The notes: generated from the sequence alone by a model not told the origin. DNA of 64,000 nucleotides from Nitrospirales bacterium (GCA_036505795.1 DASXSU010000031.1:3256-67255); one strand, 5' to 3'. Counted from the first letter of the stretch, positions 7,499 through 40,190 are shown. Translations and numbers: made by a program.

Positions 7499-8275
7499 TT
7501 ACGGGGTACCGGGGTCATACGGCACTTCGGTAAAGATCGGTCCATATTTAGAAATCAATCCCTTACACTCCACCGCCTCGCTTGCCAGTCGCTCCATATT
7601 GTCGCGCACGATCTTCGTGTAGAGCTCTTCGATCTTCGACGGTCGGGCTTTGTACTCCCGGACTCCGTACTGATCAAGAGATGGCATTCGGCGCAGGATA
7701 TTCGCGTTCGGATGCTCGCCAGGGATCATCTCGATATATTCGTTGGCCCACAATGGCGGCTCTTTGCTGACTTGTGTCCAGTGCGGCGTGATGCAGTGAA
7801 ACCCATGCTTATCAAGTTCCCCCCGAACCAGCAGAGGCCCGATCTCCTTACCGAGAAAGTTCAAATCACAAGCGGCGCGCGCTGAGGGCGCGAGGCTCTC
7901 GAAAATTCCTTTGCGGCAGATCAAACTTTTCGGATCCTTGGCGAGGGTAAAACACGGCCGCCCGTCACGCTTGCGAATTGCCTCCCAGCCGTTCGCAGTA
8001 ATCCGTGAGTCTTCGGGCAGAAAGACCCAATAATCGCCGGCGCAGTTGGCATCGCAAAGAAGATAGTTATACCCCACGTTTTTGGGAACTGGGTTTCGAA
8101 TGACCGGGATACCGAGGGACGGAAAGTCGCACCCGTTCTGGATAAGCGTTAGTTGTACTCCGGTCTTTTGAAGGGCGGCCACCTGGGCGTGAAGGAAATA
8201 GTTGTGATGCTGAAGCTCCGCGTCGGGATCATTCGGAAAGACGACGGTCGCACAGATGAAACAGTGAAGCTTCAT
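7499..8275 (-). CDS. hypothetical protein, possibly a divergent GT-A-fold glycosyltransferase
   Basis: 258 aa; no family recognised. The N-terminal third (FICATVVF..., [25 protein letters not shown]) loosely follows the GT2 beta1/DxD layout. Its ATG overlaps the uxs stop. Confidence 0.3.
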
Positions 8276-9267
8276 AGGAGCCGTTTTCGAAAGTATGCAA
8301 TCGTACGCTGCAGACCTTCATCGAGGCTCACCTTCGGCTCCCAGCCGAGGAGCTTTCGCGCGCGCGTGATATCCGGGCGGCGCACCTTCGGATCATCCGC
8401 CGGCAGCGGCTTGAACTCGATAGGAATCCCCGTATCAATCAATGCTTGCACCTTCTGCGCGATTTCTAAGACCGAAAGTTCCTGCGGGTTGCCGATGTTC
8501 GTCGGATCATGGACGGATGCCGCACTGCGCTGGTAAATAAACGTCCGGTCGGTGCGCTCCTCGTGCGTCTTGTCCGAGGGCACCAGCAGCAGCCGGGTGA
8601 TCCCCTCGATCAAATCGTCCACATAGCAAAAACTGCGCGTCTGGCTGCCATCGCCGTAGACTGTCAGTGGTTGCCCGGTCAAGGCTTGCACGATAAAGTT
8701 GGAGACGACGCGCCCATCCTTTGGCCGCATGGCCGGCCCATAGGTGTTGAAAATGCGCACGATCCGCGTATCGACGCCGTGATACCGATGGTAGGCCATG
8801 GTCATGGCCTCGGCAAAACGCTTGGCCTCGTCGTACACCCCACGGGGACTGATCGGATTGACATTGCCCCAATATTCCTCCGGCTGCGGGGAAACCAAGG
8901 GATCGCCGTAGACCTCGGAAGTGCTGGCCAGCAGGAAGCGTGCGTTCTTGGCCTTCGCCAGCCCTAAGGCCTTGTGTGTTCCCAGGGCGCCGACCTTCAA
9001 GGTCGCGATGGGAAACTCTAGATAGTCTTGCGGGCTCGCGGGCGAGGCAAAATGCATCACCGCGCCGAGGGGACCGGCCACATGCAGGTAGTCGCAGACG
9101 TTGTACTTGACGAAGGTGAACCGTTCATGGCCGATGAGATGCGCGACATTGTCCATCCAACCCGTAATGAGGTTATCAATGCAGATGACCTCGTGCTCAA
9201 GGCCGATCAGCCGCTGGCACAGGTGGCTGCCCAGAAACCCAGCTCCGCCGGTGACGACTACGCGCAT
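8272..9267 (-). CDS. uxs: UDP-glucuronate decarboxylase (UDP-xylose synthase)
   Basis: From internal ATG 9267: [17 protein letters not shown]...[10 protein letters not shown]...YDEAKRFAE...RIFNTYGP...[14 protein letters not shown]. The longer tracked ORF would overlap the upstream GT2. Confidence 0.85.
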
Positions 9268-9269
9268 GT

Positions 9270-10064
9270 TTATCCCCGTTCGACCAGCGCGTGCCCGTAT
9301 CGAAGCTGTTCGTACCGCTCGATCATGGCGTCCTGAAAGTCTGTCCACCGGCGCTGGAACCAGTTGCCCCGGACGGTGCGACCCCATTTTTTTTGAAAGT
9401 ACTCCGAATTTTTTGCCGGATAGCTCTTGGTCTCGAGTCGCTTGATGGCTTTCTGCGTGACCATACCAAAATGATGGATAAAGGCTGACCCCGTCACGGC
9501 TGCGCTAAAGCCGGCCTTCTGGGAGCGCCACAGAAAATCGATGTCTTCGCAACCTCCATACACAAACTCTTCGTCGAAGAGTCCGATGCGATCAAACACC
9601 TCGCGTCGGATGAACATACAGGGTCCACGCAGTCCTCGACGAGTGGCGGCCCGGCACGCAGTCGTGAACTCCGCCGCGTAACGGTCCAGTTCATAATCTA
9701 GGGGCCCTTCACGCATGGCTGGGCTCACAATACCACATCCCTTTTCCTCCATGAAACTTAGGAGGGCCGGCAACCATCCCGGCGTCAGAACGATGTCGTT
9801 GCTTAAAATGCCGATCACGTCGCCGCGACTGGCGCGAATGCCCTGATTCCATCCCTTAGCGCATCCGAGATTCGTCACATTGGTAATGACCCGTATGTCC
9901 GTGCCCTTGAGATATTCTGACGTGCCGTCGGTGGACCCATTATCTACAATAATGAGTTCTCCGGCCTTGTCCGGCAACCGTTGGATGGACTCCACGCACT
10001 GCATCGTATGCATGAGCTGGTTGTAGACCGGGATGACGAGGCTGACGCGGTCGAAGGTGATCAC
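9270..10064 (-). CDS. glycosyltransferase family 2
   Basis: [10 protein letters not shown]...[11 protein letters not shown]...GCAKGWNQG...ILSNDIV. Confidence 0.8.
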
Positions 10065-19839: not shown

Positions 19840-20677
19840 GGAAGCCCCGCCGCGCGATCTCCGGATACAACCGCCAATTAAGCCAGCGATTTCGCCGTGG
19901 GGCCAACCGCACACCCGACGCCACCCGTGCTTGCATGACGCGGGGATGAGTTCCCCGAAATTCTTTCAGAATCGGGTAGTCTTCAAAATCGAAGGCGTCC
20001 TGATGGTAGAGCTTCGCTTCGGAAGGGGGGGGAGCATCGCCGTGATAGACTTTCGTCTGCTCCTGCTTCTTAGCCAACATGATTTTCGGGTCCTTGACCC
20101 AGCCATAGTGAAAGATCCGAGCCCCCGAGAATGCGAGCCACTCAGGGGGTCCGCTCTGAACATATTGCCCCGTTGCCTTCAGATGAAACCCGACCGCATC
20201 GCCACACGATTCCACTTCTCCGTTATTGCGTATGATCCGGACCGCCTTATGATAGAACCAGGGATTGAGCGACCAGTAATCCCCCACGAAGTGCAGGTAA
20301 CGAAAGAGGAGCCCTCGCAGGGCAGGACTGTCTTGAGCCAACTCCAGCGCCTCCAGAATTCGTGGCAAATCCTGCTCATGGATCACTTCATCGGCCTGTA
20401 GATAGAACGCCCACTCACCGGTGCAGTGGGACAGGGCAATGTTCGTCTGCTGAGAGTAGATGAGGCCATCCTTTCGAAGGCTCTCATCCCAGACAGATTC
20501 GATGATCCGGATTTTGGGATCCCGAATCGACCGCACCAATTCCATCGTTCCATCGTCACAGCGGCCGACGTTGACCACAAACTCGTCGACGATCGGAAGA
20601 ATCGAGGTGATCGACTCGAGCAGCGGATATTGGTAGCGCACGGCATTGCGACAGAACGTAAAACCGCTGAGTGTCAT
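19832..20677 (-). CDS. glycosyltransferase family 2-like protein
   Basis: 281 aa: SGFTFCRNAVRYQYPLLESI...VNVGRCDDGT...FYLQADEV (DxD-like). ATGA overlap with the upstream GT4. Confidence 0.6.
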   Translation of the reverse strand: MTLSGFTFCRNAVRYQYPLLESITSILPIVDEFVVNVGRCDDGTMELVRSIRDPKIRIIESVWDESLRKDGLIYSQQTNIALSHCTGEWAFYLQADEVIHEQDLPRILEALELAQDSPALRGLLFRYLHFVGDYWSLNPWFYHKAVRIIRNNGEVESCGDAVGFHLKATGQYVQSGPPEWLAFSGARIFHYGWVKDPKIMLAKKQEQTKVYHGDAPPPSEAKLYHQDAFDFEDYPILKEFRGTHPRVMQARVASGVRLAPRRNRWLNWRLYPEIARRGFRG

Positions 20678-24118: not shown

Positions 24119-25207
24119 TCATCCCTCCGACCCGCTCGCCAGAACAGCGCCTTTTTGCCACTGCTTTGTGCTGGCTTGATTCGAATCCCGCACCATCCGG
24201 AGTGCCTGATGGAATACTTGCTCTGAACTGATGGACGTCAAGCATTCTAGCGCGTTCGGATTTACGCAACGCCGGCTGAGACAGGGGCTACAGGGAATCC
24301 CGCTTCGCAGGATCACATGCCCCGCTCCGTAGGGCCCGGTTCTGCGTGGATCGGTCGGGCCAAAAAGGGCTATGACCGGAGTGCTCAGGGCTGCAGCTAG
24401 ATGCATCGGACCCGAATCGTTCGTAATCAGAAGGCATGACCGTCTCAACAACGCGATCAATTCTTTGATGTTGGTCTTTCCTACCAGATCAATGGGTGAT
24501 GTCGTCATGTGCCGGACGACTGCCCGGCCCGCATCGGTTTCTGCCGGCGCTCCACTCACGGCCACCCGAATCCCTTCCTTTTGAAGCTGATCCGCCACCT
24601 GCGCAAATGAGGCGGGTGACCATTGCTTGGTGGGCCATCGCGCTCCTGCATTGATGGCCACCAACGGGATGCCTGGCGAGACGCCCGCTGAATTCACTAA
24701 TTGCTGAAGCCGTTTGTCGGCAGCCGTATCCATCGCCAGTGGAAATTGCAGTTGCTCCGATTCCTGTGGCGGCGCGCCGAGGGCACGAGCAATTAGCAGA
24801 TAGCGATCCACGGCGTGGATCGTCGGATCAGGCACCCCGACTTTTTGCGTGTAGAACCAGGGACTCCCTTCGCGCCCGCTGGCGAAGCCGATCCGCGTCG
24901 GCGCATGAGAAAGCCACCCCAAGATGGCGCTGCGCAGAAGCCCCTGGAGATCGACCACAAGGTCGAACTGTCCCGCCCGGACCGCACGAACCGCCTCCGG
25001 CCACCCGGCTAAAGTTAAATCCACAGGCAGAACGCGATCGATCGAGGGATTCGCCTCCAGCACAGCCGCCCATTGTCGTTTCACAAGCCACGTCAGCGCC
25101 GCCGATGGGAATCTTCGCCGCAGAGCGGCGGCGGTGGGAAGCGCGTGCACGATATCTCCCAGCGAGCTGGGCTTCAAAAGCAGAATGTTGCGAAAATCAG
25201 CTTGCAT
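24119..25207 (-). CDS. glycosyltransferase family 9, LPS heptosyltransferase (WaaC-like)
   Basis: From ATG 25207: RNILLLKPSSLGDIVHALPTAAAL...LITNDSGPMHLAAALSTP. Confidence 0.75.
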   Translation of the reverse strand: MQADFRNILLLKPSSLGDIVHALPTAAALRRRFPSAALTWLVKRQWAAVLEANPSIDRVLPVDLTLAGWPEAVRAVRAGQFDLVVDLQGLLRSAILGWLSHAPTRIGFASGREGSPWFYTQKVGVPDPTIHAVDRYLLIARALGAPPQESEQLQFPLAMDTAADKRLQQLVNSAGVSPGIPLVAINAGARWPTKQWSPASFAQVADQLQKEGIRVAVSGAPAETDAGRAVVRHMTTSPIDLVGKTNIKELIALLRRSCLLITNDSGPMHLAAALSTPVIALFGPTDPRRTGPYGAGHVILRSGIPCSPCLSRRCVNPNALECLTSISSEQVFHQALRMVRDSNQASTKQWQKGAVLASGSEG

Positions 25208-26948
25208 GCCGGGTCCTTGAGAGGGACAGGCTCTCTTGAGAGTCGGCGGCGGCCGAATTTTGCAGCACCCAATCAACCGCTTCCGTCAAGTCCTTCGCAG
25301 TATAATCGGGCGACAAATCTTGCGCGACCATCAAGACCCGCTCCTCTTCGGGACGAAAGCCGCTCAGGACAAAAATGCCGAGCGCACCGACATTGCGCGC
25401 CAAGGCGATATCGAGAGCGCGATCCCCGATCACAAAGGAACGCGCGGCTGTCAACCCGAGTTCTTGGCGTGCCTGCGCGACCAACCCTGAGGCCGGCTTT
25501 CGACAACCGCAGCCTTCATCCGGACGATGAAGGCACGCGTAAATTCCGTCCAGCCACGCGCCCGACTCGGCGAGCAAATCTTGGAGCCTTTGGTGGATTG
25601 CTCCAAGCGCCTCGATCGTGATGATGCCTCTCCCAACCCCGGATTGGTTTGTGACTAAAACAGTTTTGAGCCCCGCTTGGTTCAAGCGTGCGACGGCGCC
25701 GCCGACTCCAGGGAGCAGCCGCATCGCCACAGGATCGTTCAAATAACCCGGGTCCCAGTTCAACGTACCGTCGCGATCCAGAAATACAACGGGGGCACTA
25801 TGGCTGCTCATGCCGGCTTCCGCTTCGTGGGGCGATGGAGTATCCTTGCTGATGGAGAGCGAGCTTAACGCCAACGGTGAAACGCCCGCCTCCTGCAGTT
25901 GCCGCACAGCCGCCGAGTATACCTGTTCGGTCTGTATACCGCGCATGCACCGATGATCAATCGGACACTCCCGTAGCAAGCAGGGCGAACAGTCCACCGG
26001 GTGGCGGACCAATTCATGGCCGCTGCCGAACGGTGCGGTCGTGCGGGGATCCGTCGGCCCAAAGACCGCCACGACACGGACACCGAGCGCGGCGGCAATA
26101 TGCATCGGCCCGGCGTCGTTAGTGAGGAACAGCCGGCACTGCTTTACCAGCGCCATCAATTGCCGCACCGTTGTATGACCCGACAGGACGGTGTGAGGAG
26201 AGGTGAGCATTGCGGCGATGGCGCGGCCCAGTGCTTCTTCACCACGACCGCCGAAGATGAGCACATGAGCCTGGTATTCGGCGGCAAGACGCTCCGCGAG
26301 CTCGGCATATCGCTCCGGCAGCCACCGCTTTGCGGTTCCATAGGTGGATCCCGGATTCACACCAATAATCGGTTGTTCCGATAATACGCCAAAAGACTGG
26401 ATGCGTGCCGCCGCCTCGCGGTCCTCTGGAGCAGTCGTATAGAGAACGGGTGCTTCCGGCGTTATGGGAAAGCCCAGTGGCCGCAGCAATTCGAGATAGT
26501 ATTCGACTTGATGGGCCTGGAAAAGCGCGGAGGACCGCGCCACGCGATGAGTGAGAAGGAATCCTCGCCCATCCGTCGGATAGCCATAACGGTAAGGAAT
26601 ACCGGCCGCGGCCGCGAGGAGTGCCGCCTCAAACGCATTCTGAAACAGGACCGCCACATCAAACCGGCGGGACCTGAGCAACCGGGCCAATCGCCATTTC
26701 CCGCCTATTCCAGCATGCGTGCCCGGATTCCTGTACAGGATGATCTCGTCAATGGCCGGATGATTCTGAAACAGTTCTGCGACGGCGGGTTTGGCCAATA
26801 AGACGAGATGCGCGTCCGGAAAACCCCGCCGCAGCGCTTTGAGCGCGGGAGCCATCATGACTCCATCGCCCAGCCAATTCGTTCCCCGGATCAACAGTCG
26901 TTTCACCGCCCCGGGACGAATCAATTCTGTAAAACGAGTCGCTCCCAT
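25197..26948 (-). CDS. fusion protein: GT9 heptosyltransferase II-like (WaaF) plus C-terminal GmhB-type HAD phosphatase
   Basis: Single ORF. N-terminal part: RLLIRGTNWLGDGVMMAPALKAL...LTNDAGPMHIAAALG. C-terminal part: VVFLDRDGTLN...VTNQSGVGRG...CGCRKP...VIGDRALDI. Start is ATG 26948 or 26993. Confidence 0.8.
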   Translation of the reverse strand: MGATRFTELIRPGAVKRLLIRGTNWLGDGVMMAPALKALRRGFPDAHLVLLAKPAVAELFQNHPAIDEIILYRNPGTHAGIGGKWRLARLLRSRRFDVAVLFQNAFEAALLAAAAGIPYRYGYPTDGRGFLLTHRVARSSALFQAHQVEYYLELLRPLGFPITPEAPVLYTTAPEDREAAARIQSFGVLSEQPIIGVNPGSTYGTAKRWLPERYAELAERLAAEYQAHVLIFGGRGEEALGRAIAAMLTSPHTVLSGHTTVRQLMALVKQCRLFLTNDAGPMHIAAALGVRVVAVFGPTDPRTTAPFGSGHELVRHPVDCSPCLLRECPIDHRCMRGIQTEQVYSAAVRQLQEAGVSPLALSSLSISKDTPSPHEAEAGMSSHSAPVVFLDRDGTLNWDPGYLNDPVAMRLLPGVGGAVARLNQAGLKTVLVTNQSGVGRGIITIEALGAIHQRLQDLLAESGAWLDGIYACLHRPDEGCGCRKPASGLVAQARQELGLTAARSFVIGDRALDIALARNVGALGIFVLSGFRPEEERVLMVAQDLSPDYTAKDLTEAVDWVLQNSAAADSQESLSLSRTRHAS

Positions 26949-28030
26949 TCCTTCCAACCCTCGAGCCAGTTTACATCGATCCGGAGGACCCACATCCCGC
27001 TCAGGGGGACAGAATCACGCAACAATTGCAGCTTCACCGCATCCTTCTCGGTCGTGACCACATGATCTGCCCGCAGACTCCCGGCGACCTTTTCGACCCT
27101 TCGAATATCTTGAATGGAATACCGGTGATGGTCCGGGTAGATGCAATGATCAATGACGGTGGCGCCGAGACTCTCCAGCAGGCGGCGAAACGAGTCTGGA
27201 TTACCGATCCCGCTTAAGGCGACCACCCGCTCGCCCTTCAATGCGTCCGGCGGCTTGCTCTCGGAAGCAGCGCCGATTTTCTGCAGGGATGTTGGGATGA
27301 AGTCTGTGACACAGAGAGGCATTGACGGCGCCACATGACGAATCGCTTTCAGAACGTCAGCCAAATCTTCAGCCTGGCCGGCTCGGGTGACGAAGATGAG
27401 CGAGGCCCGCTTGAGCGCGGACAGTCGCTCCCGGAGTCGCCCTCGCGGAAGCAAGTCGCTGTTCCCAAAGGGGGCTGTCGCGTCGAGCAGCACGATATCG
27501 ATGTCCCGTTTCAATGCAAGATGCTGAAAACCATCATCGAGTACGAGCGTATCGACTTTAAAGCGATCCAGCAAATACCGGCCCGCCGCATAGCGGTCCG
27601 CCCCCACGACAACGGGGACGCCGGGGCAGCGCTCGGCGATCAGTAACGGCTCATCTCCGGTGTTCTCGGGGTCGCCTTGGATTGACCGGCCGTCTGAGAC
27701 TTCGAGGATATCCGATGTTGCCCGTCGCCCATAACCGCGGCTGACAACGCCGACCCTGCGGCCATTGCCGCGTAAGGCATTCGCCAAGGCGATCACGACC
27801 GGAGTCTTACCGGTTCCGCCCGCCGAAAGATTTCCGATACTGATGACCTTCACCGGCAGCGCGCGCTGCGCGATCAGGCCCGCTGCGTACAAGCGTTCCC
27901 TGGCGAGCATGCCGAGCCCGTACAGATGCGACAAGGGGACTAGGGGGGCGAGAGCCCATCTCACCGGCGATGACATTCCTGCATTGTCTCTCGTGATTCG
28001 TGAGTATTGATCGTATAGGATGCTTCCCAT
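26921..28030 (-). CDS. lpxK: tetraacyldisaccharide 4'-kinase
   Basis: ISIGNLSAGGTGKTPVV P-loop, VVSRGYGR and LDDGFQH motifs. Confidence 0.85.
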   Translation of the reverse strand: MGSILYDQYSRITRDNAGMSSPVRWALAPLVPLSHLYGLGMLARERLYAAGLIAQRALPVKVISIGNLSAGGTGKTPVVIALANALRGNGRRVGVVSRGYGRRATSDILEVSDGRSIQGDPENTGDEPLLIAERCPGVPVVVGADRYAAGRYLLDRFKVDTLVLDDGFQHLALKRDIDIVLLDATAPFGNSDLLPRGRLRERLSALKRASLIFVTRAGQAEDLADVLKAIRHVAPSMPLCVTDFIPTSLQKIGAASESKPPDALKGERVVALSGIGNPDSFRRLLESLGATVIDHCIYPDHHRYSIQDIRRVEKVAGSLRADHVVTTEKDAVKLQLLRDSVPLSGMWVLRIDVNWLEGWKEWERLVLQN

Positions 28031-28036
28031 GAATAG

Positions 28037-29317
28037 TTAACAATGACCCTTCGATTTCAACAGCTCGACTATGAGCTCCGCATTCTTCCCCACCGTTCCT
28101 TGGTTCGCTCGCACGATCTCCTCGGCCGCACGGCCCATCTTTTGAAGCCGGGCCCGATCTTTCAGCAGCCCACCTAATGCCACGGACATTTCCTCACCGT
28201 CTTGAACCTGGAGGGCACCTCCTTGCGACACCAACAACTCCGCAACCTCGGCAAAGTGATCCATATGGGGGCCGAAGACCAGGGCTTTGCCGCACGAAGC
28301 GGGCTCCAAAGGACTATGGCCGCCGATCGGCACGAGGCTGCCTCCCACAAACACCAGTGCCGCCTGTCGATACACCCCTGCCAACTCTCCGAATGTATCC
28401 AGGAGAATAATGCGAGGACCTCGCAGCACTTCCCGATGCTGATCGAGCGCTGTTCGCCTGAATACGGCAAATCCTCGTGCGCGAGCGATCGCCTCCAATG
28501 CCTCCACGCGCTCCAGATGGCGGGGAGCTAAAACAAGCACCAGGCCCGGTGCAACATCAAGCAGTCGGCGATAGCAGTCCAGCACGGCCTCCTCTTCAAT
28601 GGGATGGGTGCTGCCGGCAACAAATAATTCCTCATGTGCCTGCAGTCCAAGCTCGATCGGCTTCGCCGAGAGCCGATACGGAATTTGATCGAACTTGAGA
28701 TTCCCCGTGCGGACCACGCGGCTAGGATCGGCTCCGAGGGCCACGATGCGCTGCACGTCGCGGTCAGTTTGCATAAGCGATAGCGAAAACAAGCTGACGA
28801 TTCGCGAAAAAAATGGCCGGAGCCGCAGGTAGCCCTTGAAGGAATCGGTAGAAATCCTACCGTTCACCAGCACGCACAAAATCCCGCGATGTGCTGCAGC
28901 CTTCAGAAAGTTAGGCCACAACTCCGTCTCGACGATCAGGATAAGCCGCGGGCGGATCACTCCCAGTACCTTTCGGACGACCAATGGGAAATCCAGCGGA
29001 AAGTAGATGTGTTGCGCGAGTCCTTCGAGCCGGCGCGTCACCGTGTCTTTTCCGGTCTCAGTCACGGTGGAGACAACCACGCGCTGACGCGGATCACGCC
29101 TCTTGAGTTCTTGAACAAGCGGGACCACCGCATTGACTTCACCCATGGACACTGCGTGTATCCATATCGTGTGGCCATCCGCACAGTCCTCGGCCAAATG
29201 TTCCGGCAGCCATCCGAGGCGTTGCGCAAGCCCTCGACGGCAGCGCTTCTTTGCCAGAAGAATCCCGAGGATGACCGGCGAAGCCAGCGCCAAGGCGATA
29301 TTGTAGATGCCAAACAT
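28037..29317 (-). CDS. waaA: 3-deoxy-D-manno-octulosonic acid (Kdo) transferase
   Basis: From ATG 29317 (GGGAG 4 nt upstream): MFGIYNIALALASPVILGILL...IWIHAVSMGEVNAVVPLVQEL. About 427 aa, as in E. coli WaaA. The same frame is open upstream into the DUF374 C-terminus. Confidence 0.85.
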   Translation of the reverse strand: MFGIYNIALALASPVILGILLAKKRCRRGLAQRLGWLPEHLAEDCADGHTIWIHAVSMGEVNAVVPLVQELKRRDPRQRVVVSTVTETGKDTVTRRLEGLAQHIYFPLDFPLVVRKVLGVIRPRLILIVETELWPNFLKAAAHRGILCVLVNGRISTDSFKGYLRLRPFFSRIVSLFSLSLMQTDRDVQRIVALGADPSRVVRTGNLKFDQIPYRLSAKPIELGLQAHEELFVAGSTHPIEEEAVLDCYRRLLDVAPGLVLVLAPRHLERVEALEAIARARGFAVFRRTALDQHREVLRGPRIILLDTFGELAGVYRQAALVFVGGSLVPIGGHSPLEPASCGKALVFGPHMDHFAEVAELLVSQGGALQVQDGEEMSVALGGLLKDRARLQKMGRAAEEIVRANQGTVGKNAELIVELLKSKGHC

Positions 29318-30003
29318 GAGGCTCCCGAGGAGATCCCATGTCTTTCGCGGCCCTTCAACCCCTAGGAGCTGGTCCGCCTCGTCGCCCAGTTGGTTCAGCG
29401 CGATTTCCAATTCCACCCGCTTCGCCTCGATCTGCTCTTTGTCGGCGTCCTTCGAAACCCATATCGGCCTGCCCCAGAGGAAACATGCGCGACTGAATGG
29501 CATCGGCACCTCAAATCGATCCCAGCTCCCAAAGAGTTTTTTTTTGAGGCGGCAAAGGTGATGGGGAGGATCGGCAACCCTGTGAGCTTCGCCAGTTCGA
29601 TGACCCCACCCTGTGCGTGGCGCCGAGGGCCTCGGGGGCCATCGGGAGTCACGACCAGATCCGTTCCTGCTCGTCCGGCCCGTACCAACTCTCTGAGAGC
29701 CCGGCTTCCTCCACGCGTTGTTGAGCCACGCACCGTTCCAAAGCCGAACCAGCGCAATATCCGCGCGATCAATTCTCCATCGCGATGCGCGCTGATCAGG
29801 ATCTTCACGCCCGGCCCTCGGTACGACAACGGGATCATCAGTTGGCGACCGTGCCAGAACGCCATGATGATGTTTTTGCCCTCGTGCCATCGCGTGTCGA
29901 CTCTTTCCGGATGTATCGTCCGTAGACGCAGGGTCGCGCCGAGTCCGCGAATGACGACATACCCCAATGCCGGCAGAAGCCATAATTTAAGGCGGGGCCA
30001 CAT
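29318..30003 (-). CDS. DUF374 (lysophospholipid acyltransferase-like) protein, interrupted by a frameshift at an A9 tract and in frame with waaA downstream
   Basis: Frame A (29546-30003): MWPRLKLWLLPALGYVVIRG...TPDGPRGPRRHAQGGVIELAKLTGLPILPITFAASKK. Frame B (29318-29545): KLFGSWDRFEVPMPFSRACFLWGRPIWVSKDADKEQIEAKRVELE. No stop before the waaA ATG. Confidence 0.65.
29537..29545 (-). repeat. A9 (T9 on plus strand) homopolymer, the frameshift point of the DUF374 gene
   Basis: Plus strand reads gagTTTTTTTTTgagg. On the coding strand, TCA AAA AAA AAC contains the slippery heptamer A AAA AAA. Confidence 0.9.
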
Positions 30004-30061: not shown

Positions 30062-31798
30062 TTAGGTTTTGTCTTCATCGTGGAACTGCATCTGATAGAG
30101 CCGCTTGTAGATCCCATGGGCAGCGAGAAGATCTTCGTGGCGGCCGATTTCAGCCACACGCCCACGCTCGAGCACCACGATGCGATCGGCTCGTTGTACC
30201 GTAGAAAGGCGGTGCGCGATGACGAAGGTCGTGCGACCTGTCATGAGGTTGGCCAGCGCCATTTGCACCATGCGTTCGGATTCGTTATCCAGCGAGGACG
30301 TGGCTTCGTCGAGGATGAGGATCGGCGGGTTGCGCAGCAACGCCCGCGCGATCGCGAGACGTTGTCGCTCTCCCCCCGAGAGTTTGACGCCGTTCTCGCC
30401 GATCAGGGTATCGTAGCCATTCGGAAGCCGCACGATGAAGTCGTGCGCAAAGGCGGCTTTTGCCGCCTCGACGACGGCTTCAGCGGTAGCCATGTCATTA
30501 CCATAGGCGATGTTATTCCGAACACAGTCGTCAAAGAGAAGCGTCTCCTGAGAGACTATTCCGATCCGGCGCCGCAAGGCCGACAACCGGATCTCGCGGA
30601 TATCGACACCGTCAATGAGAATCGCGCCGCTGCTTGGCTCATAAAACCGCGGAATCAGATTGACGAGCGAGGTTTTGCCTGCACCACTGCTTCCGACCAA
30701 CGCAAGAAGCTCACCCGCTTGAATCGCCAGCGTAATCTCACTGAGCGCCGGCGTATCAGCGCCATCGTATTGAAATGAGACCGCTCTGAGCTCAATGCCG
30801 GTTTTCACCCCGTCGAACTCCCGCTGGCCGGTGTCCAATGCCGCCTCGGTCGGAACATCCACCACGCTGAAGACCCGTTCGGCGGCCGAAAGCGCCTGCT
30901 GGATCGTGTTGTTCGCGGATGCGAGTCGCTTAATCGGCGTGTACATCAGAAAGACCGCAGTGAGAAAAGAGAAGAATGTGCCGGGTGTCATTGTGCCGCC
31001 GATCACCTGCGATCCCCCGTACCAAATAATGCCCGCGACCCCCATGACGCCGACCGCTTCGAGAACCGGAGACGTGATGGCGGACACCTGCGTCGACTTC
31101 ATGTTGGTGCGAAAGTAGGCTTCATTGAAACGTGCAAAGCGCTGAGATTCAGCGGCCTCCTGCGTAAATCCCTTGACGATCCGGATACCCGTCAGTGTCT
31201 CTTGCAATGCCAACGACATGTCGGCAGTCCGCTCCTGGCCGCTCGTTGCGATTCGACGCAGGCGGTTCCCGAACCGGATCATCGGATAGACCGATAGGGG
31301 AATGGCTACGATCGCAAGGAGCGACAACTGCCAATGCTGGTAAAAGATGACGCCCATCAGAACAAGAAACGTGAGACTTTGCTGAAAGAGATCTTTGAGA
31401 ACGCTGGAGACCGCATTTTGAATCCAGTTCACATCGTTGATCACGCGCGACATCATACGGCTCGATGGGTTCTTGAGATGAAACGTAATCGGCAGGCGCA
31501 TCAAGTGGCCGAAAAGCTGCTGCCGGATATCCGTAACCACGCGGCTGCCGACATAGATCATTAGATAAGCCTGCCCGTAGCCGGCGAGCCCTTTTAAAAC
31601 CGAGACCAGCATCAGTGCCACGGGAAGCAGCATCAGCCAGGTGCCATTCCTGTTAATGAAGACCTCATCCAAGGCGGGCTTCACCAGCCAGGCATAAGCC
31701 CCGGTCAACCCGGCGACGACGCTAGAGCACAGGCCGGCCGCCAGCAAACGGCCCCAGTACGGTCGCATGTAGCGCAGCAGGCGCAGGTACGTCTTCAT
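30062..31798 (-). CDS. msbA: lipid A export ABC transporter (permease/ATPase)
   Basis: 578 aa with six TM segments plus an NBD: GSSGAGKTS (Walker A), LSGGERQR (signature), ILILDEATS (Walker B). Lipid A context. Confidence 0.85.
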   Translation of the reverse strand: MKTYLRLLRYMRPYWGRLLAAGLCSSVVAGLTGAYAWLVKPALDEVFINRNGTWLMLLPVALMLVSVLKGLAGYGQAYLMIYVGSRVVTDIRQQLFGHLMRLPITFHLKNPSSRMMSRVINDVNWIQNAVSSVLKDLFQQSLTFLVLMGVIFYQHWQLSLLAIVAIPLSVYPMIRFGNRLRRIATSGQERTADMSLALQETLTGIRIVKGFTQEAAESQRFARFNEAYFRTNMKSTQVSAITSPVLEAVGVMGVAGIIWYGGSQVIGGTMTPGTFFSFLTAVFLMYTPIKRLASANNTIQQALSAAERVFSVVDVPTEAALDTGQREFDGVKTGIELRAVSFQYDGADTPALSEITLAIQAGELLALVGSSGAGKTSLVNLIPRFYEPSSGAILIDGVDIREIRLSALRRRIGIVSQETLLFDDCVRNNIAYGNDMATAEAVVEAAKAAFAHDFIVRLPNGYDTLIGENGVKLSGGERQRLAIARALLRNPPILILDEATSSLDNESERMVQMALANLMTGRTTFVIAHRLSTVQRADRIVVLERGRVAEIGRHEDLLAAHGIYKRLYQMQFHDEDKT

Positions 31799-32994
31799 TA
31801 AATGGGGACCTCTTCCGGTCCGAGGAGCTTGATGATTGTCTTTGCAGCGCGTTTTGACGCTCCCGGCTCCCCGAGAAGCGCCCGCACCCTGACCATTTCA
31901 GCCCGCATGTCATTGCGGTAACGGTCGTCTTTCAGGATTCGCCGTGCCTCCGCGGCAAGACGTTCGGGGCTTGCATGCGTCTGAATAAGCTCGGGGATGA
32001 AACTCCTGCCGGCAATGAGGTTGGGAAGTCCGATAGAAAACATCGGTATATTCGGCCAGCAGACCTGGCGGGCGGCCAGGGATGCGGGTGTGCTGGTCAG
32101 TAGACGTGCGATCAAGTACCCCAGCCACGCCATCTTGTAAACGATGACCATCGGCGTGCCGATAATGGCCGCTTGTAAGGTGGCAGTGCCCGAGGCGACG
32201 AACAAAAGATCCGACGCCGCCATGACCTCGTTGGGGTTTCCAGTGATCTGCCGGACGTCTATTCCGGCACGGTCGCACATGAGTTTAATTTCGTCTCGAT
32301 CCACGGTCTCGGCGACCGCCAGAACCATCCTAATAGGACCGCAGTCTGCGTTCAGAGTTCGCGCGGCCTCCAGCATCAACGGCAAGAGAGCTCGCACCTC
32401 GCCCATTCGACTTCCCGGCAGGAGGCCAAGGACACGCTCCTGGGGCTGCAGGCTATACGCCGCGCGAATGCCATCACGATCATACGATGGCGCCATCTCA
32501 TCCAGGAGCGGGTGGCCCACGAAGGTGCACGGCACGCCGGCTTGCCGATAGAGCTTCTCCTCGAACGGCAAGATGACCACCGCATGGTCAACGCGGCGCT
32601 GCATCCATTTCATGCGACCCGGCCGCCACGCCCAGAGCTGGGGCGTGATGTAGTAGACCACACGGCAGCCCGCGCGCTTGGCAACGCGAGCGAAGTGAAA
32701 ATTCAAGCCGGGCTGATCTATCAGGACCACGAGGTCCAGAGGCTCCCGGCGCAGAAACCGCCGGATCGCCAGGATACGGCCGACTAACACCCGTACTGCG
32801 CCCGGACCGATGAGCCCGATCACGTCCAACTGCGGGATACCTTCCAACATCTGCACCCCCGCCGCGCGCATACGGGCTCCCCCCACACCCTGAATAGATA
32901 GACTGGGATCCGATTCCCTCAAGGCCTGCGCCAGGTGAGCTCCATGGAGATCTCCGGACGCTTCGCCGGTGATGATGAGAATGCGTTTCGTCAT
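31798..32994 (-). CDS. lpxB: lipid-A-disaccharide synthase
   Basis: RILIITGEASGDLHGAHLAQAL N-terminus; 398 aa; context. Confidence 0.85.
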   Translation of the reverse strand: MTKRILIITGEASGDLHGAHLAQALRESDPSLSIQGVGGARMRAAGVQMLEGIPQLDVIGLIGPGAVRVLVGRILAIRRFLRREPLDLVVLIDQPGLNFHFARVAKRAGCRVVYYITPQLWAWRPGRMKWMQRRVDHAVVILPFEEKLYRQAGVPCTFVGHPLLDEMAPSYDRDGIRAAYSLQPQERVLGLLPGSRMGEVRALLPLMLEAARTLNADCGPIRMVLAVAETVDRDEIKLMCDRAGIDVRQITGNPNEVMAASDLLFVASGTATLQAAIIGTPMVIVYKMAWLGYLIARLLTSTPASLAARQVCWPNIPMFSIGLPNLIAGRSFIPELIQTHASPERLAAEARRILKDDRYRNDMRAEMVRVRALLGEPGASKRAAKTIIKLLGPEEVPI

Positions 32995-33932
32995 CGCTGG
33001 TCCGGCCGTCCTATTTGAGTCATGATGCTCTCGCTCAATCTGAGTGCCGCCATCCCAGCTTCGCCCGACACCAGCGGAGGCGTTCCGTGGAGAATGGACT
33101 CCAGAAACGCCTGGAGCTCCAGCTTAAGGGGTTCCTGCCCATCACCGCGAATCACCTCTGTGATGATCTCGGAGTGGCCTGTCGAGCCGACAATGCGCCG
33201 GCCGATCTTCGCGGTTTGCGCGAGCAGATCGACCACCAGAAAACTGTTCGATTCGTAGAAACGGATCTCCCTGACCTTTTCTTCAGCCAGCCGGTTGGCG
33301 CTGAAAGTCGCCATACAACCGGTCTCGAACAGCACCTGAGCATAGGCCACATCGGTCGTCGGCGATACGAGAGACACCCCCTGCGCATCGACGTGTCGCA
33401 CTCCGGCATCTAAAACGGAGAGCACAATATCGAGGTCGTGGATCATTAGATCGAGCACGACATTTACGTCCGCGCCGCGCGGCGTAAACGGCGCCCACCT
33501 TCGGCAGTCGATCAGTCGTGGCGCTTTAATCACTCCCAGGCTTGCCCGCAAGGCCGAGTTAAAGCGCTCAATATGACCCACCTGGAGGATCAATTTTCGC
33601 GCCGCGGCCATCCCCACCAGATCTTCCGCCTCTGCCGGAGTCACCGTCATGGGCTTCTCGACCAACACGTGGAGGCCGGCTTGCAGGCATTCCCGCGCGA
33701 TCTGATGATGAAGAGGCGTCGGAACGGCGACGCTGACCGCCTCGACCTGGCCGAACATCTCCCGAAAATCCGGGAACGCCCGGCAACGATGCTTGGTGGC
33801 AATCTCTTTCGCGAGACCGGCATCGGCATCGACAACTCCAACGAGGTCCGCCTCCTGAGCCTCCGCGTAGACCCGGGCATGGTGCTGCCCTAATGACCCC
33901 ACCCCGATGACGCCGACCTTCACGCGATGCAT
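32991..33932 (-). CDS. Gfo/Idh/MocA-family NAD(P) oxidoreductase (GnnA-like position in the lipid A cluster)
   Basis: VKVGVIGVGSLGQHHARVY Rossmann N-terminus and EKPMTVTPAEAEDL motif. Wedged between lpxI and lpxB, with ATGA overlap to lpxB. Confidence 0.7.
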   Translation of the reverse strand: MHRVKVGVIGVGSLGQHHARVYAEAQEADLVGVVDADAGLAKEIATKHRCRAFPDFREMFGQVEAVSVAVPTPLHHQIARECLQAGLHVLVEKPMTVTPAEAEDLVGMAAARKLILQVGHIERFNSALRASLGVIKAPRLIDCRRWAPFTPRGADVNVVLDLMIHDLDIVLSVLDAGVRHVDAQGVSLVSPTTDVAYAQVLFETGCMATFSANRLAEEKVREIRFYESNSFLVVDLLAQTAKIGRRIVGSTGHSEIITEVIRGDGQEPLKLELQAFLESILHGTPPLVSGEAGMAALRLSESIMTQIGRPDQR

Positions 33933-36752: not shown

Positions 36753-39128
36753 TCAGAAGAGCGAGCCGATTGAAAACTCAAAGACTCCAGCGCGTTCGCC
36801 CTCTCGCCGATCGAGATTGATCCCGTAGGCTAAACGTAGCGGCCCAAAAGGAGAAATCCAGCGCAGCTCCACGCCCGTTGCCCGGCGCAGATTGAGGTTC
36901 AACGCCTCGCCATCGTTGAAGCCTTTGCCGTAATCGAAAAATAGCACCCCTTTTACTTTCACTTCAGGAACCAAGGGAAAAATGAAATCGAAGTTAAAGA
37001 TGAGTTCTTTGGTGGCTCCCAGGATGCTAAAGTTGTCGCTGGCCACAGGGCCTGCTCGCCCGAAGCTAAAACCTCGCATCGTTTGAATGCCACCGACGAA
37101 AAACCGCTCGCCCACGGGCAGTGGCCTATCTCCACCATAGCTGTGGGCGACTCCCAACCGCACGCGCGGCGAGAAGACCGTGTCCCACACAACGGGGAAG
37201 TATCCCACGCTGTCGCCGATGAGTTTATAGAATTCGTTGTCGCCTCCCAGGATACTGCCGGCGAACTCCGCCGTCAGGCCATGCCGGGAGCCGCTTTTCG
37301 GATCAAAATAAAAGTCGCGGGTGTCGCGAGCAATCCCGCCCACGATGGCCTGGGTGGTACTAGACCCGAGTTGCTGCTGGATCAAAAGCGGGAGATCAGC
37401 AATTGGCGTTGTGGTTGTGACCCCTCCGCCTCCAAGAAAAAAGCCGGTTGGGGCATCAGCACTGATTGTCAGACGTTCCCGAATCAAGCTGACATTGCCG
37501 CTGAGATACTCTGAGAACCATTTACCGAGGACGACGTCGCCGCCTATGCGCCTCTCGAAATAACTGATGAAAAATGTCTCTCTGGCGTACAGGTCGATCT
37601 GCCCCGAAATCTGCTGGTCAAAGAGGTAGGGCTCACGAAAAGTGATGACGCCTAACGACCGCCGCTGTCCGAGTTGTCCGCGAATCTTCAACAACTGCCC
37701 CCGGCCGAATAAATTCCCTTCCGTGACATCCGCGACCAGCGACAACTGGTCGAGGGAGCTGAATCCTCCGCCAATGCTGAATGTGCCGGTTGATTTCTCC
37801 TTCACCTTGATGTCGAGATCGACCGTGTTCGGGTCGAGTTGCTTCGGAATGATTTCCACGGTTTCAAAGTAGTTAAGATTATTCAAACGTTGAAAGCTGC
37901 GCTTCAGCGCGGCGGTATCAATCAACTCGGCCTCGTTGAGCCGCAGTTCGCGACGGATGACTTTGTCGCGGGTCTTTTCGTTCCCTGAGATATTGATATT
38001 TCTCACGTGAATGAGGGCGCCTTCTTTACTTTCGAAGATCACTGTGGCCGTTTGTGTCTCCTGGTCGGGACGCACATCGGGGTTCACTTCGGCAAACGCG
38101 TATCCTTTGACGCCGTACAGGTCGGTGAGGCGCGTCACCTCGTCCCGGACCTCCGCCATACGAATAACCGATCCCTCTTTAAGCTTACTCCCGCTTCTGA
38201 GTTCGGACTCCGTGAAGAGAGTTTGTCCTTTATAGTCTGTCTTGGCAAGTTTGAACTGCGGACCTTCGACGACCGGAAACCGAATCGTGAACCATTTTTT
38301 ATCGGGGCTGAGGTCCACCGAAGGGGTGCCGACTTGCGAGTTCAGGTAGCCTTCGTCGAGATAGACCTGTCGCACGCGTTCGACGTCGTTGGAAAGTTCT
38401 TCCTTCTTATATATCCCGGAGTCGTCGAACCACGAAAAGAGAAGACTGTATTGCCTGGTGAACAAGGGCTTTTTCAGTTTCTTCACGGGAATAGATTTGG
38501 CCCCTTCGAAGGCCACTGTCTTGACTCGCGCTCGATCCCCCTCCTGAATAAAAAAGGTCAGGGTTTTCTTCTCGGTATCCAAAGTTTTGATTACCGGGAT
38601 AATGCGGGCATTATAGTAACCTTCCTCTTCATAAAGGACGCGCAATCGCTCCACGCTGTCTTTCACCTGCTGCTGATCCAGAAATGACTGGTTACGGACG
38701 GCCAATTTCTCCCTAAGCTTTTCATCTTTAATCTTCTCATTGCCGTCAAACACAATGTTCGTGATGAACGGTTTCTCCGTCACAACAAAGATGACCGCAA
38801 CGCCACCGGGCACCGGCTCTGTCTCCACACGCACATCTTCGAAGAACCCCAACTGGTAGACAGACCGGATTTGTTCCCGGATCGCCTCTGTTGAAAACCG
38901 TCCTCCCTCCTTCAACGTAATTCGTCCACGGATGGCGGGTACTTCTATGCGCTTATTGCCTTGGACCCGAATGGATTTAATCAGCGGCCCGGGCTCTTCT
39001 GCCCAGACATGTCCCCCCACGGCTGCTGCCAGTAGAGTCAACAAAAAACCTAGCAGAACTACGCAAAACTTTGGGAGGACGGTGCTGGCGGCGTTTGTCT
39101 TGTGGTATGGTGGGGTCAGAAAATGCAC
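36753..39128 (-). CDS. bamA: outer membrane protein assembly factor BamA
   Basis: 791 aa with signal peptide, POTRA repeats (IKSIRVQGNKRI..., ITNIVFDGNEKI..., VRNINISGNEKT...) and a beta-barrel ending in ...FEFSIGSLF. Confidence 0.9.
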   Translation of the reverse strand: MHFLTPPYHKTNAASTVLPKFCVVLLGFLLTLLAAAVGGHVWAEEPGPLIKSIRVQGNKRIEVPAIRGRITLKEGGRFSTEAIREQIRSVYQLGFFEDVRVETEPVPGGVAVIFVVTEKPFITNIVFDGNEKIKDEKLREKLAVRNQSFLDQQQVKDSVERLRVLYEEEGYYNARIIPVIKTLDTEKKTLTFFIQEGDRARVKTVAFEGAKSIPVKKLKKPLFTRQYSLLFSWFDDSGIYKKEELSNDVERVRQVYLDEGYLNSQVGTPSVDLSPDKKWFTIRFPVVEGPQFKLAKTDYKGQTLFTESELRSGSKLKEGSVIRMAEVRDEVTRLTDLYGVKGYAFAEVNPDVRPDQETQTATVIFESKEGALIHVRNINISGNEKTRDKVIRRELRLNEAELIDTAALKRSFQRLNNLNYFETVEIIPKQLDPNTVDLDIKVKEKSTGTFSIGGGFSSLDQLSLVADVTEGNLFGRGQLLKIRGQLGQRRSLGVITFREPYLFDQQISGQIDLYARETFFISYFERRIGGDVVLGKWFSEYLSGNVSLIRERLTISADAPTGFFLGGGGVTTTTPIADLPLLIQQQLGSSTTQAIVGGIARDTRDFYFDPKSGSRHGLTAEFAGSILGGDNEFYKLIGDSVGYFPVVWDTVFSPRVRLGVAHSYGGDRPLPVGERFFVGGIQTMRGFSFGRAGPVASDNFSILGATKELIFNFDFIFPLVPEVKVKGVLFFDYGKGFNDGEALNLNLRRATGVELRWISPFGPLRLAYGINLDRREGERAGVFEFSIGSLF

Positions 39129-39279: not shown

Positions 39280-39308
39280 TTGACTTTGGGGGGGGCGGTC
39301 CGTAGAAT
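39280..39308 (+). promoter_or_regulatory. near-consensus sigma70 promoter of galU, with a G8 tract in the spacer
   Basis: TTGACT (39280-39285), 17-nt spacer ttGGGGGGGGcggtccg, TAGAAT (39303-39308). The ATG at 39318 is only 10 nt after the -10 box. Confidence 0.5.
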
Positions 39309-39317
39309 CCGTTGATC

Positions 39318-40190
39318 ATGTCATCTTCGAATGTCACGAAAGCGGTCATTCCGGCTGCAGGGCAGGGGACTCGTTTTTTACCTGCCACCAAGGCCTCTCC
39401 GAAGGAAATGCTGCCGCTTGTGGATAAACCCCTCATTCAGTATATCGTGGAGGAAGCGGTCGCATCTGATATCCGGGATATTATCGTTATCTCAGGACGA
39501 GGCAAACGCGCCATTGAAGATCACTTCGATGTCTCCTATGAGCTGGAAGAGATGCTGAAACAGGCGAACAAAGACGATCTGTTAAAGGAGATTCGCCGGA
39601 TCTCGGAACTTGCCAACTTTTGTTATGTTCGACAACGGCATATGCGAGGCCTGGGCGACGCGATTCTGTGCGCCCGTCACCTGGTCGGCAACGAGCCATT
39701 CGTGGTGATGTTGGGAGACGAGATCATCGACGCTCAAGTGCCGGCGATTGCGCAATTAATGGAGCTCTATGAACGATTTCAGGCGCCGATTATCGGCGTG
39801 CAGGAAGTTCAACCGGATGAGGTCTGTAATTACGGAATTATCGCTTCGAAGCCGGCTGGCGACGGCATTTTTCATGTGACCGATCTGATCGAGAAACCCT
39901 CAATAGCCGAAGCTCCGTCGCGCATGGCGGTCATCGGCCGTTATGTCCTCACGCCGAACGTGTTTGCCGCCCTTGCAAAGACGCCTCCAGGCAAGAATCA
40001 GGAGATCCAACTGACCGACGCCCTCCGCATGGTCGCCAAGCAAGCACCAATGTATGCGTGTATTATTAAAGGAAAGCGCTATGACGCCGGCGATAAGCTG
40101 GGCTTCCTCAAAGCAACCGTGGAGTTCGCCCTGAGAAGTCCGGAGTTGGGTGAGCGCTTCGCCTGTTATCTGAAGCAACTCAGTCTTTAA
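39318..40190 (+). CDS. galU: UTP--glucose-1-phosphate uridylyltransferase
   Basis: KAVIPAAGQGTRFLPATKASPKEMLPLVDKPLIQY...GLGDAIL...VIGRYVLTP. Start is ATG 39318 (TTG 39312 also possible). Confidence 0.9.
   Translation: MSSSNVTKAVIPAAGQGTRFLPATKASPKEMLPLVDKPLIQYIVEEAVASDIRDIIVISGRGKRAIEDHFDVSYELEEMLKQANKDDLLKEIRRISELANFCYVRQRHMRGLGDAILCARHLVGNEPFVVMLGDEIIDAQVPAIAQLMELYERFQAPIIGVQEVQPDEVCNYGIIASKPAGDGIFHVTDLIEKPSIAEAPSRMAVIGRYVLTPNVFAALAKTPPGKNQEIQLTDALRMVAKQAPMYACIIKGKRYDAGDKLGFLKATVEFALRSPELGERFACYLKQLSL

Follow-up and report, generated by a model that had tools for sequence, protein, structure and literature searches.

The lipid A acyltransferase gene lpxJ is one base short at a conserved nine-adenine tract in Nitrospirales: a candidate case of transcriptional slippage

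How does a bacterium make a lipid A acyltransferase from a gene that is one base short? The question is raised by lpxJ, a gene of the DUF374 family, in a 64,000-nucleotide stretch of a Nitrospirales bacterium (GCA_036505795.1, DASXSU010000031.1:3256-67255), which we call the window and number from its first letter. The gene lies on the minus strand and starts at the ATG at 30003-30001. Its zero frame reads PILPITFAAS KK N SLGAGIDLRCRC through the codons TCA AAA AAA AAC at 29547-29536. These codons contain a run of nine adenines (A9; 29545-29537 on the minus strand, T9 on the plus strand), beyond which the frame continues into an arginine-rich tail, SLGAGIDLRCRCHSVAHVSSGAGRYGFRRTPTKSRSRRSGWNWKSR, and ends at the TGA at 29397-29395. 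The zero-frame open reading frame (ORF; 29395..30003, minus strand) encodes 202 residues, 155 of which are genuine and 47 of which form the out-of-frame tail. The C-terminal third of LpxJ (residues 156-213; 29366..29539, minus strand), with the SWD motif (W161 and D162), a PxPF motif, and a long terminal helix, is found in the -1 frame. When A29539 is read twice, the sequence becomes SKKKLFGSWDRFEVPMPF, and one A re-read by the ribosome or one A added to the message leads to the same reading, SKKKLFGSWDRFEVPMPFSRACFLWGRPIWV. The tract (29537..29545, minus strand) is the putative slippage site and holds the heptamers A_AAA_AAA and A_AAA_AAC in the -1 phase. An earlier note on this DNA, made from the sequence alone, had described the break, its continuation in the -1 frame, and the equivalence of one extra A and a -1 shift. 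Re-reading the window sequence confirmed this equivalence and all the coordinates and readings given there.

The tract is the longest homopolymer in the window, where we estimate from the GC content of 57% that about 0.1 such runs would be expected. The only other long A/T run is an A8 at 9394-9387, which a glycosyltransferase family 2 (GT2) gene (10064-9270) reads through in frame. No gene other than lpxJ is broken at a homopolymer in the 64 kb. The break is present in the public annotation of the same metagenome-assembled genome. The NCBI product (P0001) has 227 residues, starts at the ATG at 30078, and is otherwise identical to the zero-frame product of the window. It is named 'lysophospholipid acyltransferase family protein', a name that carries no frameshift flag. 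The ATG at 30078 falls within the 3' end of msbA, the N-termini of the homologues align with the ATG at 30003 (MWPRLKLW), and lpxJ overlaps msbA by 4 nt in the in-frame relatives.

The window gene is lpxJ, encoding a late (secondary) acyltransferase of lipid A. Its product matches PF04028 over residues 61-127 (E = 5e-29, 100 bits, for a cut-off of 26.8). The family had been correctly named before, but the gene had not been recognised as that of a characterised lipid A enzyme: DUF374 is LpxJ, which attaches the secondary acyl chain at the 3' position and is able to work ahead of the transfer of Kdo by WaaA (PMC6148475). The context of the gene, between msbA and waaA-lpxK, is consistent with a role in 3' secondary acylation. 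The essential residues of the Rickettsia typhi LpxJ are W60, H61, D86, D132, W172, and D173, and the substitutions W172A and D173A abolish activity (PMC6148475). Their counterparts in the window are W50, H51, D75, D121, W161, and D162, a correspondence established by motif (FWH, HRDGE, PDGP, and SWD) and not by direct alignment to the Rickettsia sequence. All lie in columns that are invariant, or nearly so for D75, across 16 homologues. W161 and D162 are supplied only by the -1 frame, and the zero-frame product is without both. With the essential Trp-Asp of SWD missing, the 202-residue product of the unedited message should be inactive, judging from the mutagenesis of the Rickettsia enzyme. 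An AlphaFold model of the frame-corrected LpxJ has a predicted local distance difference test score (pLDDT) of 85.7 and a predicted template modelling score (pTM) of 0.84. Its best Foldseek matches are PlsC (5kym), PatA (5f2z), and LpxM (5knk), with E between 1e-7 and 3e-5 and template modelling scores of about 0.5. The segment that follows the tract is modelled as three strands (155-177) and a helix (189-213), with pLDDT of 76-97, which makes it, in the model, an integral part of the acyltransferase (LPLAT/AGPAT) fold.

The break is not specific to the window. We checked the DNA of 23 out-of-frame Nitrospirales loci, and all have the tract at the same position, in the same codon phase, and one A short. 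A protein search with the corrected LpxJ retrieved many relatives, 65-83% identical, whose match stops after the first 67-72% of the query. They end in FAASKKNS followed by an arginine-rich tail. In this first survey, 68 of the best 120 clusters are broken at [S/L]KK[N/K/T], a fraction that over-represents distant in-frame relatives because broken sequences score lower. The second survey sampled the genus Nitrospira with a query ending just before the tract, and is hence unbiased by frame: 115 of the 119 clusters are broken at the tract and 4 are in frame. A genome scan with one genome per species gave a similar picture, since TCA AAA AAA AAN occurs in an identical phase in all 10 Nitrospirales loci, each with its SWD motif in the -1 frame, whereas in other phyla the 52 scorable loci are all in frame and have no A-run. 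The tract-bearing loci of a metagenome scan are also out of frame (7/7), as are five loci from further look-ups (L101-L105), which include Nitrospira sp. NS4. Two loci, L015 and L101, have ten adenines, with a next codon (Ile or Thr) that begins with A, so that the register is unchanged and the gene is still one A short. We sampled 30 members, all distinct alleles, from the two largest clusters, and every one is broken, although this sample is uninformative on in-frame variants, which would not co-cluster with broken ones at 90% identity. A tree of the part of the protein that precedes the tract places the broken clusters in one large clade with only three nested in-frame exceptions. Hence, lpxJ is one A short in the DNA here and in almost all tract-bearing Nitrospirales.

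To characterize selection on either side of the tract, we computed the ratio of the proportions of nonsynonymous and synonymous differences (pN/pS, Nei-Gojobori) among 15 loci (105 pairs), for which synonymous divergence is high (pS around 0.6). The ratio is 0.35 upstream of the tract in the zero frame. Downstream, the -1 frame gives 0.42, the zero (annotated) frame 1.22, and the +1 frame 1.53. Over the 57 codons analysed, the -1 frame is free of stops and frame-breaking indels in all loci. When the -1 translation is aligned to the in-frame homologues, S160, W161, D162, F164, P167, P169, G178, and P180 are invariant. These results show that the -1 frame is the coding frame downstream of the tract and that it is under purifying selection. 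We rejected a function for the zero-frame tail, which varies in length from 30 to 78 residues and evolves like non-coding sequence, as its pN/pS indicates. In the window and in seven loci of distant lineages (L013, L016, L034, L075, L081, L082, and L102), the zero-frame stop lies at +139 nt after the tract, its commonest position. This is a by-product and not an independent signal, because the stop arises from the codons CTG AAC, which specify a conserved Leu-Asn in the -1 frame.

The tract itself is also under selection. All nine adenines are invariant in a 16-locus alignment, including four synonymous sites, i.e. a fourfold serine third base and three lysine third positions of the -1 frame, while third positions elsewhere differ from the consensus at a frequency of 0.36-0.38. 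No A/T run reaches nine in 210 kb of Nitrospirales DNA except the lpxJ tract, which recurs at the same codon in every locus. It has been eroded in one lineage only (TTG AAA AAG AAA CTC in L091-93), and there the gene is in frame.

How would the active enzyme be made from such a gene? Our preferred reading, which we hold with moderate confidence from the comparison of these sequences, is that recoding at A9 produces the active LpxJ, most likely through RNA polymerase slippage with the addition of one A. The polymerase would most likely slip on the nine-base homopolymeric hybrid and add one A to a fraction of the lpxJ transcripts. Nine bases is the length of the RNA:DNA hybrid in the elongating RNA polymerase. 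Transcripts with the additional A would then be translated normally as SKKKLFGSWDRF, giving active LpxJ. Ribosomes could also shift by -1 on A_AAA_AAA or A_AAA_AAC and make the identical protein, a route that we expect to be minor because there is no conserved stimulator. Over an alignment of 16 loci that spans positions -45 to +90 relative to the tract, RNAalifold identified no conserved RNA structure (-4.8 kcal/mol; covariation term positive, at +0.4), and the window sequence folds no better than its shuffles (z = +1.07). The upstream sequence, ACCTTTGCCGCC, is not Shine-Dalgarno-like, and hence we found no upstream stimulator of this type. The locus has no match to an Rfam family beyond a sub-threshold MS2 hairpin on the opposite strand, which we take as chance.

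Conservation spans the full nine-nucleotide run and not one heptamer. Published efficiencies at such runs are high: frameshifting in Escherichia coli reporters is 10% at A7, 40% at A9, and 63% at A11 (PMC3711429), the A9 run of Thermus dnaX gives around 50% of slipped product (PMC1088944), and transcriptional slippage at an A11 run restores the interrupted Citrobacter tssM (PMC4256274). Selection against A/T runs is evident from length nine in many bacterial genomes (PMC1088944). We rank RNA polymerase slippage first because of the lack of a stimulator, the conservation of the whole run, and the published efficiencies at A9. The earlier note had already considered the tract long enough for transcriptional slippage, and among the options that it had listed, programmed slippage or frameshifting is the one favoured by the evidence. 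If the polymerase slips in this way, active LpxJ would be held to a fraction of the translation that passes through the operon. This may represent an adaptive setting of the dose. Alternatively, the frameshift may be merely tolerated and the tract now locked in place, since any AAG substitution would kill slippage.

Several observations weigh against this interpretation. The phase of the heptamers A_AAA_AAA, A_AAA_AAC, and A_AAA_AAG is the one required for a -1 shift by the ribosome, and sequence alone does not separate the polymerase and ribosome routes because they lead to the same protein. A deletion bias at long runs, and not selection for the out-of-frame state, could account for the dominance of A9 over A10. 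Minority alleles are invisible in most of the assemblies, which are metagenomic consensus sequences. Finally, in-frame alleles with an intact tract occur in several sub-clades. These relatives read KKK and keep a longer run: A10 in L094, L096, L097, L098, and L099, A11 in L100, and A13 in L095. The loci L094 and L095 come from unrelated sequencing runs (Logan SRR21422022 and SRR12397970), and the only difference between them in 3,663 nt is A10 versus A13 at the tract (position 1983). Both are in frame (KKK versus KKKK), while the nearest relatives of this strain, at 96-97% identity, are broken. The tract thus also slips in replication. DNA-level switching is real, in-frame alleles are viable but rare, and switching could matter functionally.

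One way to accommodate both levels, which we put forward only tentatively, is an adaptive, two-tier control device for the lipid A of the outer membrane. Slippage at A9 would set a fixed, sub-stoichiometric dose of LpxJ relative to the co-transcribed msbA, waaA, and lpxK, a rare A10 in the DNA would be a heritable state of high expression, and in one sub-clade, where the -1 frame continues into waaA (see below), the slip would make a bifunctional enzyme with a physical link between secondary acylation and Kdo transfer. If so, the order of the late steps of lipid A synthesis would be governed by the transcriptional error rate.

The alternative that survives best, although we judge it unlikely, is phase variation at the DNA level, where slipped-strand mispairing toggles lpxJ between OFF (A9) and ON (A10) and mixes lipid A acylation states. 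The benefit, in our view equally doubtful, could be protection against phages, predators, or antimicrobial peptides, with the -1 frame kept by periodic selection of ON cells. The product of lpxJ modifies a molecule of the cell surface, the in-frame alleles retain an intact tract, and length variants with identical or near-identical flanks exist, as in L094 and L095. Pairs of A9 and A10 alleles are found in three sub-clades (L013 and L097; L016/L075 and L099; P0065/P0085 and P0002/P0004). There is also a precedent, since the poly-A tracts in the lipopolysaccharide (LPS) genes wbeL and manA of Vibrio cholerae are proven contingency loci (PMC3441752), but there the default allele is in frame. In Nitrospirales, OFF dominates all the unbiased samples, i.e. 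the 115 of 119 clusters, the 10 genome representatives, and the 7 metagenome loci. The sub-clade in which the frame continues into waaA, with about 118 member sequences by our own sum, has no in-frame counterpart among the top matches. The out-of-frame clade is old (with the pS given above), nearly pure, and as constrained downstream of the tract as upstream, which makes expression from rare ON cells alone hard to maintain. Hence, of the features of a contingency locus, we observe length polymorphism between close relatives but not the joint abundance of ON and OFF states (17/17 loci of the unbiased DNA scans are OFF). Phase variation, which the earlier note had also proposed, is supported by the existence of the A10, A11, and A13 alleles. 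Given their rarity, we keep it as a rival or a second layer, of minor or secondary importance.

Programmed -1 ribosomal frameshifting as the main route seems to us less probable still. In this scenario, which resembles dnaX of E. coli, tRNA-Lys slips on A_AAA_AAA or A_AAA_AAC, with A_AAA_AAG as the site in some relatives. Canonical X_XXY_YYZ heptamers are indeed correctly phased in all loci, and the A_AAA_AAA pointed out by the earlier note is one of those in the window. L013 and L014 have A_AAA_AAG, the most shift-prone heptamer in bacteria, and the product of the shift is identical to the in-frame homologues. Yet, we found neither a conserved hairpin or pseudoknot downstream nor a Shine-Dalgarno-like stimulator upstream of the tract in the analyses described above, and unstimulated lysine heptamers shift only a few percent of the time in E. 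coli. Besides, all nine adenines are kept, more than one heptamer requires, and the variants keep or lengthen the run (as in L101 and L015, where A10 goes with a codon for Ile or Thr) instead of a particular heptamer.

A pseudogene, in which lpxJ would be inactivated and decaying, is very improbable: the annotated product is truncated and without essential residues, but the -1 frame downstream of the tract is under selection equal to that upstream and uninterrupted by stops or indels despite near-saturated synonymous divergence, and the synonymous sites of the tract are frozen. We can dismiss, with even more assurance, a sequencing or assembly error that hides a true A10 and a plain lpxJ-waaA fusion in the window, since, even if homopolymers are error-prone (especially in long-read assemblies) and a few assemblies report A10, the same deficit is found in the 23 loci checked in DNA, in the 115 of 119 clusters, and in hundreds of independent sequences (NCBI, JGI, ENA, and Logan), most of them short-read assemblies by MEGAHIT or SPAdes, and the A9 of Nitrospira sp. 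NS4 (GCA_049546785.1) recurs in an independent Logan assembly of another run that is identical over 5,654 nt. Assembly-wide homopolymer errors are likewise rejected, as the other runs of the window break no gene. The sequencing-error and decaying-gene options raised by the earlier note are thus both discarded.

RNA polymerase slippage at A9, our preferred reading, has precedents in other bacteria. In Thermus thermophilus dnaX, slippage at an A9 gives transcripts with a variable number of adenines and two proteins (Larsen et al. 2000, as summarised in PMC1088944 and PMC3711429). Like dnaX, lpxJ is a chromosomal, non-mobile gene with exactly nine adenines on the sense strand. The outcomes are reversed: in dnaX the templated frame gives the full-length tau and the slipped one the shorter gamma, whereas in lpxJ the templated product is truncated and presumably inactive, and the slipped product is predicted to be the functional one. 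In Citrobacter rodentium and Yersinia pseudotuberculosis, poly-A transcriptional frameshifting rescues the interrupted tssM and both protein lengths are made (PMC4256274). There too, the ORF is interrupted in the DNA with a poly-A run just before the break. In contrast to lpxJ, the tssM run has 11 adenines and occurs in few enterobacterial strains, while the lpxJ tract is kept across an order-level clade, and a role has been demonstrated for the short TssM product. GeneTack identified the Mg-chelatase genes chlD/bchD and other clusters recoded at poly-A (PMC3711429; PMC9227772). These are, like lpxJ, housekeeping biosynthetic genes with -1 transitions at A-runs conserved across genera, but they differ in gene family and clade. 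The survey included one genome of Nitrospirae and did not list lpxJ (PMC3711429).

The reading in which the frameshift is non-adaptive and tolerated fits another case, that of endosymbionts (cited in PMC5009743). In the AT-rich, degenerating genomes of Buchnera and Blochmannia, which have many such tracts, frameshifted genes are kept functional by polymerase infidelity at poly(A) tracts, so that slippage restores the frame. In contrast, the lpxJ genome has 57% GC, and its tract is the only one of this type in 210 kb. The closest precedent at the DNA level is that of wbeL and manA in V. cholerae O1. A8 and A9 tracts inside these LPS genes are conserved in all strains, with length changes in DNA that alter the cell surface, and nonstandard decoding was also tested as a source of the residual activity of a shifted wbeL allele (PMC3441752). 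There, the default is in frame and OFF alleles arise under phage pressure, whereas in Nitrospirales the default is out of frame in about 97% of the clusters.

In the window, the -1 frame does not end with LpxJ. It remains open through M230, encoded by the ATG at 29317 where WaaA begins (MFGIYNIALAL), down to the TAA at 28039-28037. The resulting product has 655 residues, with Pfam matches to DUF374 at residues 61-127 and to Glycos_transf_N at 259-440. An open linker (residues 214-229; 29318..29365, minus strand), of which residues 219-229 are modelled as disordered, joins the C-terminus of LpxJ to WaaA. Six loci are fused in this way (the window, L081, L082, L083, L101, and L102), with the -1 frame open for 500-510 codons past the tract and into WaaA, although L081 reaches the end of its contig with the frame still open. 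The linker of these loci has 18, 19, or 21 residues and is always open. In the other sub-clades, the -1 frame stops 63-68 codons past the tract, or 78-97 in L013, L014, and L015, and waaA forms a gene of its own, whose frame can be any of the three, after a gap of 0-280 nt. The fusion is thus a derived feature of one sub-clade, and we rejected the idea that it is the conserved purpose of the frameshift. The DUF374-WaaA fusion put forward in the earlier note is real in the window and in five loci of its sub-clade, but it is not conserved. The same note had considered that relatives with a stop between the two genes and no A-tract would argue against recoding. The relatives examined here do have the stop, yet they also keep the tract and the broken frame, a combination that supports the recoding of lpxJ.

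The stop after lpxJ was lost in the sub-clade of the window, where a slipped message would yield a 655-residue bifunctional LpxJ-WaaA protein. Direct in-frame LpxJ-WaaA proteins of 620-700 residues are common in other phyla and are colinear with this product. One of them (MBI5624855.1, from Elusimicrobiota, 652 residues) matches it end to end. They have the same domain order, and the hydrophobic junction helix is retained, but a single open frame encodes each of them, with no A-run at the corresponding position. Therefore, the fused product is plausible and probably functional. WaaA is probably also made alone, from its own ATG, which is kept in the six fused loci. The possible Shine-Dalgarno sequence of the window, GGGAG (29322..29326, minus strand), lies 4 nt before this ATG and also provides Gly-Ser codons of the linker. 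Both elements had been noted before as a means to produce WaaA independently, but only the ATG is conserved: GGGAG is specific to the window, being replaced by GGTGG in L081 and by nothing similar in L082, L083, and L101.

We found no literature on slippage or frameshifting in LpxJ or DUF374, in lipid A genes, or in Nitrospira, with a coverage that is incomplete and does not exclude priority. In soils, waters, and wastewater plants, Nitrospira are the main nitrite oxidisers and also the complete ammonia oxidisers. If our reading is correct, a housekeeping gene for outer-membrane biogenesis depends, throughout the order, on slippage at a single A-run, and lipid A biosynthesis joins the short list of non-mobile bacterial genes that are recoded, such as dnaX, prfB, tssM, and chlD. 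The public annotation is systematically wrong at this gene, since hundreds of Nitrospirales entries (including P0001) describe a truncated acyltransferase with a nonsense tail. The essential C-terminus of LpxJ is left unannotated, as is the 655-residue LpxJ-WaaA fusion in one sub-clade. The alleles with A9, A10, A11, A13, or an eroded tract are a natural series for separating slippage at the levels of RNA, ribosome, and DNA, and existing cultures (Nitrospira sp. NS4 and N. lenta) make the case directly testable.

The genes around lpxJ form a tightly packed operon on the same strand, in the order lpxI, GFO/IDH/MocA oxidoreductase, lpxB, msbA, lpxJ, waaA, lpxK, and a fusion of heptosyltransferase and HAD phosphatase. 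The first member, lpxI, is at 34883-34005 (minus strand). Directly upstream of lpxJ, msbA (30062..31798, minus strand) encodes the lipid A flippase, an ABC transporter with the Pfam domains ABC_membrane and ABC_tran. On the other side, waaA (28037..29317, minus strand) encodes the Kdo transferase (PF04413, E = 1.2e-60) in the frame of the C-terminus of LpxJ. The NCBIfam models of WaaA match residues 231-650 of the 655-residue product. The match to NF004388 covers model positions 4-422 of 425 but scores 363 bits, under the equivalog cut-off of 438, and the protein is below the equivalog cut-offs of all five PRK05749 models even if the match is full length. These matches support membership in the WaaA family, as a divergent WaaA, but not the exact equivalog. 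Directly downstream of waaA, lpxK (26921..28030, minus strand) encodes the tetraacyldisaccharide 4'-kinase (PF02606, E = 3e-97). Its end is overlapped by 73 nt by an ORF of 598 residues (25197-26993, minus strand) with a GT9 heptosyltransferase domain (residues 100-346) and a C-terminal HAD phosphatase domain (426-572) that is possibly GmhB-like. A similar heptosyltransferase-HAD gene, of 571 residues, is present in L101. The oxidoreductase (32991-33932) and lpxB (31798-32994) of the window are separate ORFs on the minus strand with an overlap of 4 nt, whereas the call upstream of msbA in L101 is a single product of 594 residues with GFO_IDH_MocA and LpxB domains (L101 1-416). The latter may represent a second lineage-specific fusion in the same operon.

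A few observations concern other parts of the window. The 371-residue epimerase ORF listed from 9387 (8272-9387, minus strand) is over-extended, as its Pfam match begins at residue 43, and its real start is probably the ATG at 9267 (MRVVVTGGA). Two G8 runs are also present: the one at 20025-20032 lies inside an uninterrupted ORF of 281 residues, and the one at 39288-39295 is between divergent genes (36753-39128 on the minus strand and 39312-40190 on the plus strand).

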